Source: Escherichia phage vB_EcoM_G17. From it: 64,000 nt of DNA. The translations under genes were made by a program, and so were the position numbers. The stretch is from the sequence record MK327931.1, one strand, 5' to 3'. The notes beneath the pieces are model-generated. The model worked only from the letters and a program-made list of their open reading frames with translations, made no database searches and had not been told where the DNA came from. Shown piece by piece: positions 44,738 through 54,130 of the stretch (its first letter is position 1; each line of letters starts with the position of its first letter).

Positions 44738-44830
44738 GATACACTCCTGCACCCAGTGGGCTAGTTTTTGTCTATGCGTATATAATAGCAAAGGGACTGA
44801 CCGGAGTCAATCCCTTTTTTTATTCTTTTT
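44738..44830. repeat. repeated intergenic element copy A with bidirectional terminator
   Basis: Motif GATACACTCCTGCACCCAGTGGGCTAG 44738-44764, then hairpin GGGACTGACCGGAGTCAATCCC 44793-44814 and T-run; recurs near 47485-47580, 50758-50840, 54042-54130. Confidence 0.6.
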
Positions 44831-44832
44831 TG

Positions 44833-45033
44833 TTAGATGATTCTCCAATCTTCTACGATCATGGTAAGATAACGGACCATCGATTCAAGTGATTCGAATT
44901 CCCGATAGTCTGCCGCTCCACCAGCGGTACAAGTACAGCCGATTAAACCATTTTGTAATTCCTTAATCTGTACATCGATAAGGTTGGCTTTAGCTTCTTT
45001 CAGTACTTCAACCAGGGCGATAGCGATAGACAT
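44833..45033 (-). CDS. hypothetical protein
   Basis: ORF track; GGAG SD; own promoter cassette. Confidence 0.55.
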   Translation of the reverse strand: MSIAIALVEVLKEAKANLIDVQIKELQNGLIGCTCTAGGAADYREFESLESMVRYLTMIVEDWRII

Positions 45034-45056
45034 AATGTTTTACTCCAAACTATTGA

Positions 45057-45116
45057 CGGGAGAACTATTCCCCCGCTCTATGTAAAACATTATACATTAC
45101 TGGTTAGTACTGTCAA
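45057..45116 (-). promoter_or_regulatory. sigma70-like promoter + leader hairpin cassette
   Basis: -35 TTGACA 45111-45116, 16-bp spacer, -10 TATAAT 45089-45094, hairpin CGGGGGAATAGTTCTCCCG 45057-45075. Confidence 0.6.
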
Positions 45117-45122
45117 ATAGTT

Positions 45123-45380
45123 TTATGAAATATCTTCGATGTAGTCGGCCCATTTCATTTTTTCAGTACTGTCAATGGCTACCGGATTATTTGGATCAAA
45201 CCATTCACCATTCCCGCAATACATACCCACGGCAACGGTTTTATATCCATCCTGTGCAGTACTCCACGACATAGCACGATAGATATGGCCTTTAACTGGT
45301 TGCAATACTGGTAATGTTTTATGGTCTTCTACGTAGGCCATAGCTTGAGGATTTACCCGATATTGTGTGAACTGTTCCAT
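45123..45380 (-). CDS. hypothetical protein
   Basis: ORF track. Confidence 0.65.
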   Translation of the reverse strand: MEQFTQYRVNPQAMAYVEDHKTLPVLQPVKGHIYRAMSWSTAQDGYKTVAVGMYCGNGEWFDPNNPVAIDSTEKMKWADYIEDIS

Positions 45381-45408
45381 TATGTTTCCCCTTGTAGTTA
45401 GTAAAGTT

Positions 45409-45437
45409 ATTACATCAGTACTATCAAGCTATGTCAA
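45409..45437 (-). promoter_or_regulatory. sigma70-like promoter (no leader hairpin)
   Basis: -35 TTGACA 45432-45437, 17-bp spacer, -10 TGTAAT 45409-45414. Confidence 0.5.
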
Positions 45438-45456
45438 TAGTACTGAAATAAAACTT

Positions 45457-45681
45457 TTAGATTAGATTATTGATGCCGTTGATGGTAGACTCGCTTTCTT
45501 CTTTCTCCCATTGGCGGTAGTACTTCCATGCTTCATGATATGTGGCGATTAGTTCATCTTTTTGATCCTGAGTACATGCCAGTACTGAATCACGGTGAGC
45601 GGTTTTATAGATAGAATCGAATGATTTCTTCTCTTCTGCCAGGTTAGCTACTTCCCGCATCAGTTCATCAAAGTTAGCCAT
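45457..45681 (-). CDS. hypothetical protein
   Basis: ORF track; AAGGAG SD. Confidence 0.65.
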   Translation of the reverse strand: MANFDELMREVANLAEEKKSFDSIYKTAHRDSVLACTQDQKDELIATYHEAWKYYRQWEKEESESTINGINNLI

Positions 45682-45699
45682 TTTATTACTCCTTTTAGT

Positions 45700-45756
45700 G
45701 GGGGAGGATATCTCCCCCTATGCAAAACATTATACTTTGTTTTAGTTATTATGCAA
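45700..45756 (-). promoter_or_regulatory. sigma70-like promoter + leader hairpin cassette
   Basis: -35 TTGCAT 45751-45756 (overlaps stop of 45749..46012), 16-bp spacer, -10 TATAAT 45729-45734, hairpin GGGGGAG..CTCCCCC 45700-45718. Confidence 0.6.
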
Positions 45757-46012
45757 GTACTTTTTTCATATAAAGATTATATTCTACACCGCCGTAACCT
45801 TCTACGATGATATGTTTTGCGTTATCACGTTTGCACATAGTGAAACCGTTGTTGATGTGTTCTGCATTTTCCAGGGCGACATCACCGATAGCGGCACATA
45901 CGGCACTAATAACAGTATTCCGCAAAGTACTGGTATCATTAGCGGTCATAGTAGTTTGCAGTACTACGTTGTCGTATACGTGTGCATTGATAGTGATTTC
46001 GATAGTGTTCAT
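45749..46012 (-). CDS. hypothetical protein
   Basis: ORF track; GGAG SD. Confidence 0.65.
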   Translation of the reverse strand: MNTIEITINAHVYDNVVLQTTMTANDTSTLRNTVISAVCAAIGDVALENAEHINNGFTMCKRDNAKHIIVEGYGGVEYNLYMKKVLA

Positions 46013-46030
46013 GGTGTATCTCCTGGACTG

Positions 46031-46091
46031 GCGGGAGAACTATTCCCCCGCTCTATGTAAAACATTATACGTTAATCTAACTACAATGCAA
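46031..46091 (-). promoter_or_regulatory. sigma70-like promoter + leader hairpin cassette
   Basis: -35 TTGCAT 46086-46091, 16-bp spacer, -10 TATAAT 46064-46069, hairpin 46031-46051. Confidence 0.6.
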
Positions 46092-46098
46092 GTACTTT

Positions 46099-46290
46099 TT
46101 AAATTTTATTTCCGATATAGTCCGGTCTATTCTTTTCGGTCATACGCTTTGCTAATGTTTGCATATGGCTTATTGCGTTTAATGTGTCTTCCTCCAGGGA
46201 TGAATCAACATAATCAGGATCATTCTTCACCTTGCAATGATTATGATAGCGTAGTACTGCCAGTACTTTTTTAACTTCTTCTACTGTCAT
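46099..46290 (-). CDS. hypothetical protein
   Basis: ORF track; ATGA-coupled to 46287..46559. Confidence 0.6.
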   Translation of the reverse strand: MTVEEVKKVLAVLRYHNHCKVKNDPDYVDSSLEEDTLNAISHMQTLAKRMTEKNRPDYIGNKI

Positions 46291-46559
46291 AATAAGTACC
46301 CCACTTCGTTAGCTTTCAGGTTAGTATCAATCATCAGTGGATTTTTGTAGTTCACAAAACGATTAGTTTTCTCGATAGCGAATCCCATATAATCCAGCTT
46401 ACTAACAGTACATTCATTCTTAAAAACTTCTTTCGCTGCATCGATGGCTGATTGCATGGATAACCGACCATCTAAATTAATGTTTCCAAATGATCCACCA
46501 GCAGAAGTAGGATTACCGTTCATATCTTTAATGATCATAGTAGCGGAGTAGCTGGACAT
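46287..46559 (-). CDS. hypothetical protein
   Basis: ORF track; AAGGA SD. Confidence 0.65.
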   Translation of the reverse strand: MSSYSATMIIKDMNGNPTSAGGSFGNINLDGRLSMQSAIDAAKEVFKNECTVSKLDYMGFAIEKTNRFVNYKNPLMIDTNLKANEVGYLL

Positions 46560-52748: not shown

Positions 52749-52751
52749 AAT

Positions 52752-52895
52752 CTTACATCTTGCGGATAATCTTAACAGTATCTTTCACCGATTTACCGTC
52801 TTGCTGGCATTGCTCGATCATTGCGTATTGTTCTGCGGTCAGATCCTCGCCAGTTTTTGCCAGTACTGCGTCGATGAATGAATCCAGTGCGATCA
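52752..52895 (-). CDS. hypothetical small protein (47 aa)
   Basis: Below ORF-track cutoff; ATG downstream of promoter at 52941-52968. Confidence 0.4.
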
Positions 52896-52940
52896 TTTTA
52901 TTTCTCTCTTAGGTTAAGTTAACTACTGTTTATAAAACTT

Positions 52941-52968
52941 ATTATACAGTACTATCAAACGTTGTCAA
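52941..52968 (-). promoter_or_regulatory. sigma70-like promoter
   Basis: -35 TTGACA 52963-52968, 16-bp spacer, -10 TATAAT 52941-52946. Confidence 0.55.
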
Positions 52969-52995
52969 TATATTTAATAGTACTGGTAATATATT

Positions 52996-53175
52996 TTAGC
53001 GGTAATCGTCGTATGCTTTATTCACCTGGCGAATGTAACTTTCAAAGGCTTCGTCTACCGTTTCATACTCCCGAACATAATCACCATAGGAAACTACATA
53101 CATACCTTTTTGATCTTCAAACGTCATGATGATAGAATCCAGACCAACGATTTCAGTTTTTGCGATGATAGCCAT
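52996..53175 (-). CDS. hypothetical small protein (59 aa)
   Basis: Below ORF-track cutoff; ATG with AAGGAA SD. Confidence 0.45.
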   Translation of the reverse strand: MAIIAKTEIVGLDSIIMTFEDQKGMYVVSYGDYVREYETVDEAFESYIRQVNKAYDDYR

Positions 53176-53212
53176 TTTTTTAATTCCTTAGTAGTGTAGT
53201 TGATAAAACTTA

Positions 53213-53240
53213 TTATGCCAGTACTATCAATCATTGTCAA
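53213..53240 (-). promoter_or_regulatory. sigma70-like promoter
   Basis: -35 TTGACA 53235-53240, 16-bp spacer, -10 CATAAT 53213-53218. Confidence 0.5.
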
Positions 53241-53268
53241 TAGCTTTGATAGTACTGTGATAATATTT

Positions 53269-53481
53269 TTAGTTAATGATAGTCAGTGTAAAATTGTAAT
53301 CACCACAGCGATATAGCACGTTATTCCCAAATGTTCCAACTAATCGCACATCACACAAAACGCCGGTTTTTTCTTTTACTTCCTTGATACTTGTAACTCC
53401 TGTAATATCTTTATTAAAGTATTCATGATCTGAAAATAAAACTTGTTTTGCATTTTTTAATTTCGACCGGATATTAGCCAT
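53269..53481 (-). CDS. hypothetical protein
   Basis: ORF track. Confidence 0.65.
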   Translation of the reverse strand: MANIRSKLKNAKQVLFSDHEYFNKDITGVTSIKEVKEKTGVLCDVRLVGTFGNNVLYRCGDYNFTLTIIN

Positions 53482-53501
53482 TTTGTTTTCTCTCTGTTAG
53501 T

Positions 53502-53561
53502 GGGGAGAAGTTTTTCTCCCCTTGATGTAAACTATTATACAGTACTATAATCTATTGTCAA
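53502..53561 (-). promoter_or_regulatory. sigma70-like promoter + leader hairpin cassette
   Basis: -35 TTGACA 53556-53561, 16-bp spacer, -10 TATAAT 53534-53539, hairpin GGGGAGAA..TTCTCCCC 53502-53521. Confidence 0.65.
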
Positions 53562-53576
53562 ACTATTTTTTTTATA

Positions 53577-53918
53577 TTATTCGAAATCTTCTGGACCGGA
53601 CTGATAATCATCTTCACCGTATGCACTTTCTAACTTCTCGCCAGTGTGGTCATCAGTTAGTGAGTCATCCTCATAGTTCACGTCTACGCCAGTGATGTAA
53701 AACTGGCTATCGTCTGGATCATTGAAATTAATTTTCTGTATGTTTACAATAACTGTATTGATGCCCAGGACACCGCCATCAGCCGTTACAAAGTACTGAT
53801 ATTTTTCACAACCGCCTGAATTGAAACCGTAATTAATTTCGGCCCGACCATCATTTAAACGCAGTGCCTGAGCGATGATTTCATTTTCAAAGTTAGATTG
53901 AGCAATTGAGATAGTCAT
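53577..53918 (-). CDS. hypothetical protein
   Basis: ORF track; acidic C-terminus. Confidence 0.65.
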   Translation of the reverse strand: MTISIAQSNFENEIIAQALRLNDGRAEINYGFNSGGCEKYQYFVTADGGVLGINTVIVNIQKINFNDPDDSQFYITGVDVNYEDDSLTDDHTGEKLESAYGEDDYQSGPEDFE

Positions 53919-53938
53919 GATTTGTTTCCTTATTACCA

Positions 53939-53997
53939 GGGGAAACCGTTTCCCCTTTCGATGTAAAACATTATACGCTTATTGAGATAGTTTGCAA
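53939..53997 (-). promoter_or_regulatory. sigma70-like promoter + leader hairpin cassette
   Basis: -35 TTGCAA 53992-53997, 16-bp spacer, -10 TATAAT 53970-53975, hairpin GGGGAAACCGTTTCCCC 53939-53955. Confidence 0.6.
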
Positions 53998-54041
53998 GTA
54001 CTTTTTAAAAATAGTTTTCAGTACTCAAACATTATACAATA

Positions 54042-54130
54042 GATACACTCCTGCACCCTGTGGGCTAGTGAGCTATCTCTCAATGAATATATAATAGCAA
54101 AATGGCTGACCGAAGTCAACCACTTTTTTC
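54042..54130. repeat. repeated intergenic element copy D (degenerate terminator)
   Basis: Motif GATACACTCCTGCACCCTGTGGGCTAG 54042-54068; degenerate hairpin 54103-54122 plus T-run. Confidence 0.5.

Follow-up and report, generated by a model that had tools for sequence, protein, structure and literature searches.

Putative terminator-promoter cassettes with a conserved predicted leader RNA in the terminal repeat of an Escherichia jumbo phage

Repeat copies and core motif in the terminal repeat

The DNA analysed here (the window, 64 kb in length) belongs to a jumbo phage similar to Escherichia phage Sharanji, and raises the question of why an element of approximately 100 bp recurs between small genes that are all encoded on the minus strand. 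The four full copies listed in the initial annotation are present at 44738-44830, 47485-47580, 50758-50840 and 54042-54130, and its view of them as a dispersed intergenic element is supported; conservation of the element is independent of the flanks. The 25-mer GATACACTCCTGCACCCTGTGGGCT is found with 0-3 mismatches at 44738, 50759, 54042 and 60843, compared to none expected from 100 shuffles; that of copy 2 (47485-47509) is somewhat more divergent (CTTCCGCACCCTATGGGTC). The copies are mosaic, with one leader subtype common to copies 1 and 3 and another common to copies 2 and 4.

The core motif GCACCCNNTGGGY occurs nine times, versus 0.17 expected, and a covariance model has exactly nine matches in the window (E <= 3e-5; next best E = 0.8). 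Five of these are minus-strand units and four are plus-strand units, and all are directly 3' of a sigma-70-type promoter. All nine units are inside the 20.7-kb direct terminal repeat (DTR, 43333-64000), of which position 64000 is the physical end of the genome: position 1 of vB_Ec-M-J aligns with 64000, and the end of its DTR (21525) with approximately 43333. The published DTR of Sharanji is 20,668 bp (PMC11895373).

Anatomy of the four minus-strand copies

The strand on which the repeat had been read was the wrong one. On the minus strand, which is the functional strand, each copy consists of three parts: a putative terminator, a promoter and a transcribed leader. The hairpins, which have UNCG loops, begin 2-15 nt past a stop codon in all four copies: at 44790-44817 in copy 1 (AAAGGGAUUGAC-UCCG-GUCAGUCCCUUU; 15 nt past the stop of ORF 44833-45033), 47542-47569 in copy 2 (11 nt past that of ORF 47581-48165), 50811-50838 in copy 3 (11 nt past that of ORF 50850-50999) and 54099-54126 in copy 4 (2 nt past that of an unannotated 45-aa ORF, 54129-54266). 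The hairpins of copies 1-3 are identical, and copy 4 has a compensated variant, TGGCTGACCGAAGTCAACCA (AAAGUGGUUGAC-UUCG-GUCAGCCAUUUU). The four account for 4 of about nine gene-strand terminators predicted in the DTR by a terminator scan.

The suggestion that these hairpins are bidirectional terminators is doubtful. As in bidirectional intrinsic terminators, an A-run and a T-run flank the hairpin, but the stem is imperfect, with a C.A mismatch in the plus-strand RNA form, and is much weaker on that strand. The minus strand is ahead by 6-9 kcal/mol (-19.5 versus -13.2 kcal/mol in copy 1, with a minus-strand z of -6.8; -15.9 versus -6.4 kcal/mol in copy 4, with a plus-strand z of only -1.6), and the terminator scan called the hairpins on the minus strand only. 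Few plus-strand transcripts would reach the hairpin.

The same DNA contains the predicted promoter, TTGACT-N17-TATTAT, for which the 5' hairpin arm supplies the -35 box and the U-tract the -10 box, 17 nt apart (44782-44810, 47534-47562, 50803-50831 and 54091-54119 in copies 1 to 4; the predicted start in copy 1 is an A at about 44775). Among 18 cassettes TTGAC is invariant, and the arm that pairs with it has changed only to bases compatible with wobble pairing (UG 15, UA 2; GC 12, GU 6), while the outer pairs of the hairpin change on both sides. All four copies have the segment TATATAATAGCAAA without mismatch; it is the TATTAT box and U-tract in reverse complement, and the hairpin holds the TTGACT box. 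Therefore the 25-bp motif of the initial annotation is the start of the predicted transcript (H2 and tail of the leader, read backwards) and not a site that stands by itself.

Each of the nine cores in the window follows a -10 box at a distance of 21-28 nt, and every one of these -10 boxes is paired with a -35 box across a spacer of 16-17 nt. An automatic test that demanded at least 9 of 12 promoter matches in register was passed by 36 of 43 units from five loci, compared to 2.7% of random DTR positions. Of the seven failing units, two scored 8/12, one scored 6/12, and four are 5'-shortened matches, for which the test therefore examined the wrong register; two of the seven were checked by eye, and both possess a promoter.

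The hairpin-plus-promoter part is a cassette of an already known kind, the promoter-early stem-loop (PeSL) of T4-like phages (Arbiol 2010, PMC2839356; Comeau 2014, PMC4122927). Both are composites of about 100 bp, joining a terminator to a sigma-70 early promoter between small orphan genes of plastic regions; in both, indel breakpoints fall at cassettes and the stem-loop may overlap the -35 box, which is a described subclass of PeSLs (PMC2839356). The present AAAGGG...CCCTTT and TATTAT agree with the nt-1/KVP40 consensus, which is A3-4G3-loop-C3T3-4 with a TAWWAT -10 box. A Vibrio Schizotequatrovirus cassette shares the hairpin, its UUCG loop, TATTAT and CAT, and its hairpin and -10 part is about 85% identical. 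In contrast, PeSLs as described run up to a Shine-Dalgarno sequence and the next start codon, whereas the present cassettes would launch a conserved structured non-coding leader, also occur as stand-alone small-RNA units and convergent pairs, and are restricted to the terminal repeat of Rak2-like jumbo phages.

The predicted leader RNA and its distribution

The predicted leader is composed of a 5'-terminal hairpin (H1) that is variable in sequence, covarying and A-rich in its loop; a YUAR spacer; a mini-hairpin (H2) of the form R-CCC-AYN-GGG-U, followed by GC; and a Y-R-Y-C-Y tail exactly 8 nt past H2 and GC, a pattern that has two competing readings. In copy 2 (47480-47529, 62.5 bits), H1 is UGAG-AGAUAA-CUCA and H2 is A-CCC-AUA-GGG-U, with the tail following; in copy 4 (54037-54086, 60.2 bits), H1 is UGAG-AGAUAG-CUCA, followed by H2 and tail. 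The leader of copy 1 (44733-44771; 35.5 bits, E 5.5e-8) has its core, CCCACUGGGUGC, at 44749-44760, and that of copy 3 (50754-50798) has its core at 50770-50781; a Chi site follows each of these, at 44695-44702 and 50743-50750 respectively. All four are on the minus strand.

In related phages, which infect Klebsiella, Cronobacter, Pectobacterium, Yersinia and Serratia, the covariance model identified 107 distinct units. Identity of the element across genera is 76-83%. In every one of the Rak2-like genomes of about 350 kb, the matches cluster within no more than 17 kb, inside the DTR where one is annotated. Judged by sequence, the predicted RNA is conserved across the whole clade of giant enterobacterial phages. 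Rfam contains no family that matches it, and neither a description of it nor transcript data for enterobacterial Rak2-like phages were found in the literature searched.

The initial annotation considered a protein-binding site or an RNA element, and the latter is the better option: H1 shows covariation, compensatory CCU/AGG variants occur in H2, and G.U pairs are confined to the transcribed strand. Across the 107 units, H1 pairing is 93%, each of its four pairs shows 4-5 pair types, and double-change cells number 171 versus 62 in shuffled and 14-55 in slid alignments, for an alignment fitted to the model from seed sequences picked for having hairpins; an unbiased shuffle test gives a significant but modest excess of stems of at least 4 bp (67% versus 40%), and approximately 20 of the 107 units have no clear H1. 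H2 pairing is 97% (innermost pair CG in 102, UA in 3 and UG in 2; closing pair AU in 50 and GU in 45), although H2 alone is a marginal structure of three G-C pairs and one A-U or G.U pair with a 3-nt loop. Its near-invariance indicates recognition of the sequence, of which a DNA-binding protein would be capable too.

The window has five further units. Unit 5 (60838-60926, minus strand; promoter 60891-60919, leader 60838-60886), whose 13-bp hairpin at 60896-60926 embeds TTGACT and has an energy of -20.9 kcal/mol, is the inward half of a convergent pair. The outward half is unit 6 (60747-60824, plus strand; promoter TTGACA-N17-CATAAT at 60747-60775, core 60797-60808); the two cores start 68 bp apart, and the region of the pair has a folding energy of -39.7 kcal/mol (z -6.7). 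Unit 7 (58511-58655, plus strand) resembles a small-RNA gene: it has a promoter (58511-58539), then a leader (58547-58595) and then a terminator of its own (58620-58640), and its RNA is predicted to be about 105 nt. Two outward-facing plus-strand units lie 1.3 kb and 1.1 kb from the genome end: unit 8 (62635-62718; TTGACT-N16-TATAAT, then a leader with the strong tail ACGCCCAAAAUUCA) and unit 9 (62851-62934; TTGCTT-N16-TATAAT, then a leader). A motif annotated at 62737-62760 is, on the minus strand, a decayed partner of unit 8 that reads GGGUGCGGGAGUGUAUCC; it keeps GATACACTCCCGCACCC, but the TGGG (CCCA on the minus strand) is lost and the covariance model does not detect it. A reverse form annotated at 62894-62910 does exist, at 62906-62918, and the list had lacked another at 62690-62702.

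Possible roles of the leader

The copies are probably composite regulatory cassettes of the PeSL kind, on the gene strand, that launch a conserved leader RNA, which may serve as a recognition handle. The UNCG-looped hairpin and U-tract would terminate the transcript of the small upstream gene; host RNA polymerase would re-initiate from the sigma-70 promoter in the same DNA, at a conserved CAT; and the new transcript would open with the conserved non-coding domain (H1, YUAR spacer, H2 and tail). The promoter-plus-leader module is found in three settings, namely before an ordinary gene promoter (the four copies), as a small RNA of about 105 nt with a terminator, and in convergent pairs near the genome end, which argues that the 5' domain of the RNA is the functional unit. 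A signal at the RNA level, for protein recognition or for the transcription complex, is favoured, and the best guess is that abundant early DTR transcripts carry a handle whose reader is a protein or the polymerase that transcribes it. Any partner that it recruits is speculative, and none that binds RNA was found among the DTR proteins.

A more specific version of this explanation, which is quite possible although tentative, is that the units are genes or leaders of trans-acting small RNAs, the RNA product rather than its transcription being what would bind and titrate a host or phage RNA-binding protein or base-pair with targets. Units of about 95-105 nt that stand alone and carry an intrinsic terminator are found in several genera (in the window, 58511-58655; elsewhere, L010a, L011c, L011d, L013a, L040a, L041a, L045b and L045c), and their ends are U-tails. 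H1 loops are A-rich and resemble A-R-N, and of about five strong DTR promoters on the antisense strand three or four are of this type, versus 5 of 40 on the gene strand. However, the four copies have no terminator of their own and continue into the promoter and gene that follow; H2 partly sequesters the conserved core, which is unusual for a seed; and E. coli genomes gave no match. The Pseudomonas jumbo phage PA5oct, of a related lineage, has a DTR that is heavily transcribed early by host RNA polymerase and yields abundant ORF-less RNAs, two of them abundant non-coding RNAs, of 236-451 nt with promoters not defined (PMC7318152), but the motif is absent from these RNAs, which have no sequence similarity to the leader. 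The covariance model has no match in the PA5oct DTR, nor in three contigs with chance matches to the search pattern. An unlikely alternative is a cis-acting signal for the elongating polymerase, either a hairpin-stabilised pause close to the promoter or a site where an elongation or antitermination factor loads, which might be analogous to the his pause, RfaH/ops, HK022 put or lambda Q while standing outside those families. RfaH ops and his-type pauses involve a 12-nt leader element of the non-template strand that can form a mini-hairpin, and the geometry from hairpin to pause is fixed. Likewise, the 12-nt core has mini-hairpin potential and invariably occupies about +15 to +35 of the non-template strand, the H2-to-tail spacing is fixed (no indels in 107 units), and the predicted geometry fits an elemental pause (3' edge of H2 at -11; G at -10 in 105/107, U at -3 in 101/107, Y at -1 in 106/107; R at +1, G in 36). 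Yet +1 is A in two thirds of the units, weakening the pause consensus, and the boxA and ops consensus sequences are not present. In lambda PR'-tR', the source of the "6S" transcript with Q, as in HK022 put, a strong promoter is joined to a conserved promoter-proximal element, and the put RNA consists of two hairpins that open the early transcripts; the lambda layout is also that of a strong promoter with a short terminated transcript, and some of the present units likewise have a terminator about 100 nt downstream. In contrast to those systems, there are 9-12 copies per repeat in both directions with no sequence relation, the DTR showed no protein resembling NusG, Q or N, and antitermination is ill-suited to units that face the genome end or oppose all genes.

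The other explanations are less probable still. It is very improbable that the core is a double-stranded operator, through which a phage or host regulator shuts promoters off, or a roadblock site: a near-invariant GC-rich 12-mer amid AT-rich DNA immediately 3' of promoters would suit it, but the distance from -10 box to core ranges from 21 to 31 nt without helical phasing because the length of H1 varies, the CCU...AGG variants alter both halves with pairing preserved, nearly half of the H2 closing pairs are G.U, and the orientation relative to transcription is always fixed. Priming of DNA synthesis or R-loop formation, as at T4 oriF/oriG, in the service of replication or duplication of the 21-kb terminal repeat, is highly improbable as well, although these phages are distant relatives of T4 with a T4-like replisome (PMC5259590) and the units, which are confined to the DTR and concentrated near the end, offer strong promoters with no tied ORF, then a G cluster, then AT-rich DNA; the pairs are convergent rather than divergent, a poor fit to bidirectional priming, and H2 would sequester the G cluster in the RNA. 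A reading of the repeats as mainly recombination substrates, as proposed for PeSLs, in which cassettes would allow shuffling of small genes and motif likeness would be due to gene conversion and not to a function of its own, is distinctly unlikely here: gene conversion within a genome fails to explain a core invariant over at least five genera beside covarying H1 stems, and the fixed layout of near-terminus convergent pairs in Escherichia, Pectobacterium and Yersinia phages is left unexplained. In its favour are the mosaic copies, the mini-circles between cassettes reported for PeSLs (PMC2839356), and the breaks in homology to relatives at the edges of copy 1 (44726) and copy 4 (54142) and in ordinary promoter cassettes at 51573, 56136, 56577, 56820, 58958, 59834, 60540 and 61943. 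Recombination at the cassettes is compatible with a function.

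The terminal repeat and the distribution of the element

The segment 44000-55000 of the window is 100% identical to Escherichia phage Sharanji (OR545507.1), an Asteriusvirus among the Rak2-like jumbo phages. Window position 64000 is the alignment partner of position 1 of vB_Ec-M-J, a related phage with annotated termini, and position ~43333 aligns to the end of its direct terminal repeat (DTR, 21,525 bp); the DTR of vB_EcoM_G17 therefore extends from 43333 to 64000, a span equal to the published 20,668 bp of the Sharanji DTR (PMC11895373), and the last base of the window is the physical end of the genome. 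All of the ~50 small hypothetical genes in the DTR are on the minus strand, with transcription running from the end into the genome, and most of them have a sigma-70-type promoter of their own and a 5'-UTR hairpin (repeat families D1-D8); 40 gene-strand promoters match at 10/12 positions or better. At the DTR boundary these spaced, individually promoted genes give way to a tight array of overlapping ~70-aa open reading frames with common internal repeats (40052-43265, minus strand).

Four copies of a ~100-bp intergenic element (44738-44830, 47485-47580, 50758-50840 and 54042-54130, here copies 1-4) were reported by the initial annotation, with an exact shared segment TATATAATAGCAAA, a hairpin and further copies of a 25-bp motif; all of these are present, far above chance. 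Three details required amendment. The reverse motif copy placed at 62894-62910 exists but lies at 62906-62918, another reverse copy at 62690-62702 had been missed, and the motif copy at 62737-62760 is there but decayed.

A 101-bp query found the element in 94 phage records, and it is 76-83% identical in phages of Klebsiella (K64-1, RaK2), Cronobacter (GAP32), Pectobacterium (CBB), Salmonella (Munch, 7t3), Yersinia, Serratia and Erwinia. Pattern matches are confined to at most 17 kb per genome, and in CBB solely to its two DTR copies; a search for related loci with one DTR protein as query matched phage 121Q alone. GAP32 has the hairpin annotated as a terminator and fHe-Yen9-03 has it as -35/-10 signals, and the motif goes unmentioned in the papers on Sharanji, CBB, RaK2, fEgEco12 and PA5oct. 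No match at the gathering score was found by an Rfam search of the whole window, nor any relevant match at E <= 5 in 43000-64000; ARAGORN found no tRNA or tmRNA genes in the window, and the leader described below had no match in E. coli genomes. A structured core is conserved in phages of at least six host genera without an Rfam counterpart.

A predicted terminator hairpin with an embedded promoter

Copies 1-4 are read on the minus strand, as in copy 1, AAAAAGGGATTGACTCCGGTCAGTCCCTTTGCTATTATATACGCATAGACAAAAACTAGCCCACTGGGTGCAGGAGTGTATC. Their hairpins fold at -15.9 to -19.5 kcal/mol (z -4.8 to -6.8), with a U-tract on the 3' side and a -35 box embedded in the stem. The proposal that they form bidirectional terminators stands for the minus strand, where a stable hairpin is followed by a U-run (-19.5 kcal/mol in copy 1 and -15.9 in copy 4), and is less certain for the plus strand (-13.2 and -6.4 kcal/mol, the latter with z -1.6), on which a U.G pair of the stem becomes a C.A mismatch; a terminator scan called the hairpins on the minus strand only. 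The tetraloop is UCCG or UUCG. Each hairpin starts 2-15 nt past a stop codon, which for copy 4 is that of an unannotated 45-aa open reading frame, and the four hairpins, among ~9 terminator-like sites on the gene strand, cut the DTR into ~3-kb blocks. The 45-aa frame (54129-54266, minus strand) is lysine-rich, ends 2 nt before the hairpin and falls where the Sharanji annotation is empty between gp082 and gp083. Two identical terminators at 57008-57029 and 57744-57765 (minus strand) have the sequence AGCCCACC-UUAAACA-GUGGGCU with a T-run (T6) behind it; AGCCCAC of the motif is used again in their stems.

In all four copies TTGACT lies in the 5' arm of the hairpin and TATTAT, preceded by TG, follows in the U-tract (TTGACT-N17-TATTAT); seen on the gene strand, TATATAATAGCAAA is therefore the -10 box and U-tract read backwards. 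Among 18 cassettes from several genera TTGAC is invariant, the opposite arm has only pairing-compatible changes (UG 15, UA 2; UA 14, UG 4; GC 12, GU 6), and outer stem pairs are altered on both sides. From these comparisons, both the promoter and the gene-strand RNA hairpin are under selection.

The 25-bp motif, as judged from its position, is the start of the predicted transcript read from the opposite strand. Nine units, each a promoter followed by a leader RNA, occur in the window: copies 1-4, 60838-60926 on the minus strand, and 60747-60824, 58511-58655, 62635-62718 and 62851-62934 on the plus strand. All nine cores (five minus, four plus) are on the transcribed strand, 21-28 nt 3' of a -10 box, and the promoter is in register in 9/9. 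An automatic promoter test over five loci was passed by 36 of 43 units, against 2.7% of random DTR positions; of the seven failures, two scored 8/12, one scored 6/12 and four were 5'-shortened model hits that put the test in the wrong register, and inspection by eye of two of the seven (44749 and 60797) found a promoter in both. An IMG/VR scan with a pattern for the core that placed no constraint on the upstream sequence returned 36 loci: a promoter was present at every match in ~350-kb Rak2-like genomes and at none of three distinct matches in unrelated contigs. Three or four of the ~5 credible outward-facing promoters of the DTR are of the motif type, compared with 5 of the 40 gene-strand promoters; those marked by the motif are therefore promoters without a direct role in expressing an open reading frame.

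The predicted leader RNA and its arrangements

The leader consists of a conserved start context C-A-T/A, a variable hairpin H1 of 3-5 bp with an A-rich loop (GCGAAA, GAGAAA, AGAUAA or AGAACAA), a YUAR spacer, a mini-hairpin H2 (R-CCC-AYN-GGG-U, then GC) and a tail. Transcripts of the nine units are predicted to start at the CAT, on the minus strand at ~44775, 47527, ~50796, ~54084 and ~60884 and on the plus strand at ~58546, ~60783, ~62670 and ~62886, and 3' ends are predicted at the hairpins of copies 1-4 and at 58640-58655. A covariance model of this unit, R1, found exactly nine units in the 64-kb window (the next best match had E = 0.8) and 131 matches, 107 of them distinct, in fetched related loci; it had no match in the PA5oct DTR or in three contigs with chance pattern matches. 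In an alignment fitted to R1, whose seed was ten units of common geometry picked for having hairpins, H1 pairing is 93% over 107 units with 4-5 pair types at all four pairs, and cells changed on both sides number 171, compared with 62 in shuffles and 14-55 when the partner is slid. In an unbiased shuffle test, a stem of at least 4 bp was found in 67% of units, compared with 40% in shuffles; H1 is just 2-3 bp in ~20 units. H2 is 97% paired and its sequence hardly varies, with a compensated CCU...AGG in three units and a closing pair that is A-U in 50 units and G.U in 45. A small peptide encoded in the leader was sought by eye, and neither a conserved start codon nor a conserved frame was found.

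The spacing between H2 and tail has no indels in any unit. Tail positions 69-73 read Y-R-Y-C-Y and vary by transitions only, and all tail variants are pairable with the GGGUG stretch of the core; pairable cells make up 97.7%, and sliding lowers this to 31-72%. This pattern allows two readings: the tail may form an alternative helix competing with H2, predicted to be weak in most units and strong in those ending in ACGCCC, or it may be a fixed-geometry signal resembling a hairpin-stabilised pause, in which the hairpin has its edge at -11, positions -10, -3, -1 and +1 are G, U, Y and R, and any pause would fall at ~+45 to +50 of the transcript. Other candidates were set aside. Inspection by eye shows frequent A.C mismatches in a simple AGA-loop-UCU tail hairpin, which is therefore not conserved as a helix; a pseudoknot between the H1 loop and the tail fits AGAUAA loops only and lacks covariation support; and the ACGCCC tail (type b) as a marker of outward units is inconsistent in phage CBB.

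Three arrangements of the unit were distinguished. In the co-directional units, copies 1-4 on the minus strand, the -35 box lies within the terminator hairpin and the leader continues, by way of a CAGTACTG box, to an ordinary promoter and gene. In the window, ~125 nt of non-coding leader and a second promoter separate the cassette from the next gene; the minus-strand unit 60838-60926 likewise has its -35 box in a hairpin, of 13 bp. The plus-strand unit 58511-58655 stands alone, its predicted RNA of ~105 nt ending at a hairpin that it has in common with the convergent gene, and similar stand-alone units occur in RaK2, 121Q and uncultivated relatives. In the third arrangement two units converge, with cores starting 68 bp apart in the window (60797/60865) and in three pairs of CBB (1008/1076, 3818/3886 and 20840/20908), and 70 bp apart in a Yersinia phage with a core longer by 1 nt. 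The convergent-pair region folds at -39.7 kcal/mol (z -6.7), and each of the two RNAs, if transcribed as predicted, would contain both the motif and its complement.

Known systems and possible function

The nearest described counterparts are PeSLs, composite terminator-promoter cassettes of T4-like phages in which the stem-loop may overlap the -35 box and between which recombination shuffles small genes (PMC2839356, PMC4122927). Copies 1-4 share with them a predicted sigma-70-like early promoter, a stable stem-loop that overlaps it and is predicted in silico to terminate upstream transcription, and an intergenic location in a plastic region, among the small hypothetical genes of the DTR, with breakpoints of homology between Sharanji and its relatives at cassettes, including the edges of copies 1 and 4. 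A PeSL cassette ends in a Shine-Dalgarno sequence and start codon; this is not so in the window, whereas at two loci of related phages (L025b and L045a) a Shine-Dalgarno sequence and ATG follow the leader directly. The H1-H2-tail leader is not part of described PeSLs. A cassette of Vibrio Schizotequatrovirus is alike in its AAAGGGTTGAC-TTCG-GTCAGCCCTTT hairpin, TATTAT, CAT and A-rich leader, but runs straight to ATG without H2. The present analysis extends the PeSL idea of mobile terminator-promoter cassettes from T4-like to jumbo phages and indicates that such cassettes can bring an RNA payload. A second, larger cassette family in the DTR (~24 copies in 44196-62420, e.g. 47367-47461, 54743-54837 and 58873-58967) consists of ordinary PeSL-like promoters ahead of nearly every DTR gene, with TTGCAA or TTGACA, a 16-nt spacer, TATAAT, a 5'-UTR hairpin GGGGAGAA-n-UUCUCCCC, a Shine-Dalgarno sequence and ATG.

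Among RNA signals that act on RNA polymerase, the lambda-type nut site combines a boxA consensus with a boxB hairpin bearing a GNRA-like pentaloop; boxA patterns are absent from the window, and the H1 loops are 6-8 nt and variable in sequence. The ops pattern of RfaH (a GGCGGTAGCGTG-like leader 12-mer) is absent from both strands. The put site of HK022 is a cis-acting two-hairpin RNA that renders RNA polymerase resistant to termination without protein factors, and the likeness extends to the two-hairpin, promoter-proximal layout only. Of the traits of an Hfq-type small RNA, which include Hfq binding, 58511-58655 and similar units in relatives have the independent transcription unit, as predicted, with an intrinsic terminator and U-tail; copies 1-4 lack it. 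The DTR of PA5oct yields abundant non-coding RNAs (paper on PA5oct), and the motif is absent from that DTR and those RNAs. A partner protein for the leader was sought among the DTR proteins with Pfam; the 49 small proteins of 43485-62372 (minus strand) gave a DksA/TraR C4 zinc finger (1e-11), a ParE-like toxin domain (5e-11), DUF7249, DUF7247, DUF1033 and a weak kinase match, and nothing else recognised.

Mechanistically, the hairpin would stop the upstream transcript, host RNA polymerase would restart within the hairpin, and the new RNA would bear a structured 5' domain. The analysis establishes the anatomy, strand, promoter linkage, covariation and clade-wide conservation of the unit. The favoured reading of the leader is an RNA-level handle: the stand-alone units suggest that the RNA product has a function, and the fixed geometry suggests a signal that is read while transcription proceeds. 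A reading of the motif as nothing but a DNA operator agrees poorly with the variable, hairpin-set spacing, the compensatory H2 variants and the frequent G.U pairs. Possible readings of another kind are that the unit serves recombination only, or that it provides an R-loop primer. A further reading, of rather low probability, is that the invariant core and its fixed-distance tail constitute a novel RNA/elongation-complex signal close to the promoter, which would serve as a pause or factor-loading site or else as an RNA switch with two states, H2/H3. With it, Rak2-like phages would reprogram host RNA polymerase on DTR transcripts, and the convergent pairs near the genome end would supply an anti-motif RNA with the potential to affect every tagged leader.

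Isolation of Rak2-like jumbo phages for therapy is widespread, and their 21-kb terminal repeats carry ~50 tiny hypothetical genes. What was an anonymous repeat now corresponds to defined predicted promoters, terminators and 9-12 non-coding RNAs per repeat, with start sites, mutations and RNA species precise enough to test.

Chi (GCTGGTGG) is oriented and enriched >100-fold in the DTR, with nine sites on the minus strand (44702, 44925, 46502, 48401, 50750, 52018, 52731, 56933 and 63403) and one on the plus strand (63408, at a distance of 0.6 kb from the end at 64000), where chance predicts 0.08 per strand; a single site falls in the remaining 43 kb. The sites on the minus strand point towards the end that the other DTR copy forms, and the orientation would block RecBCD entry from either physical end. 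Two sites lie within copies 1 and 3, and such units in other phages also carry Chi in the promoter spacer. The palindrome CAGTACTG occurs 63 times in the window against 0.6 expected (e.g. 47462, 58525, 58603, 60723, 60898, 62865 and 62937), and AGTACT 251 times against 21. The palindrome is placed just 5' of -10 boxes (CAGTACTGTATAAT, CAGTACTGGCATAAT), 5' of -35 boxes (AGTACTTGCAA) and ~20-27 nt past the motif, and could be an operator for a dimeric regulator. The terminal 1.6 kb (62373-64000), which has no annotated gene and has promoters in both directions, contains TCTAGCCGTC-like repeats at ~63100-63200, four copies of ACGCCCAAAATYC and a back-to-back Chi palindrome at 63396-63415.
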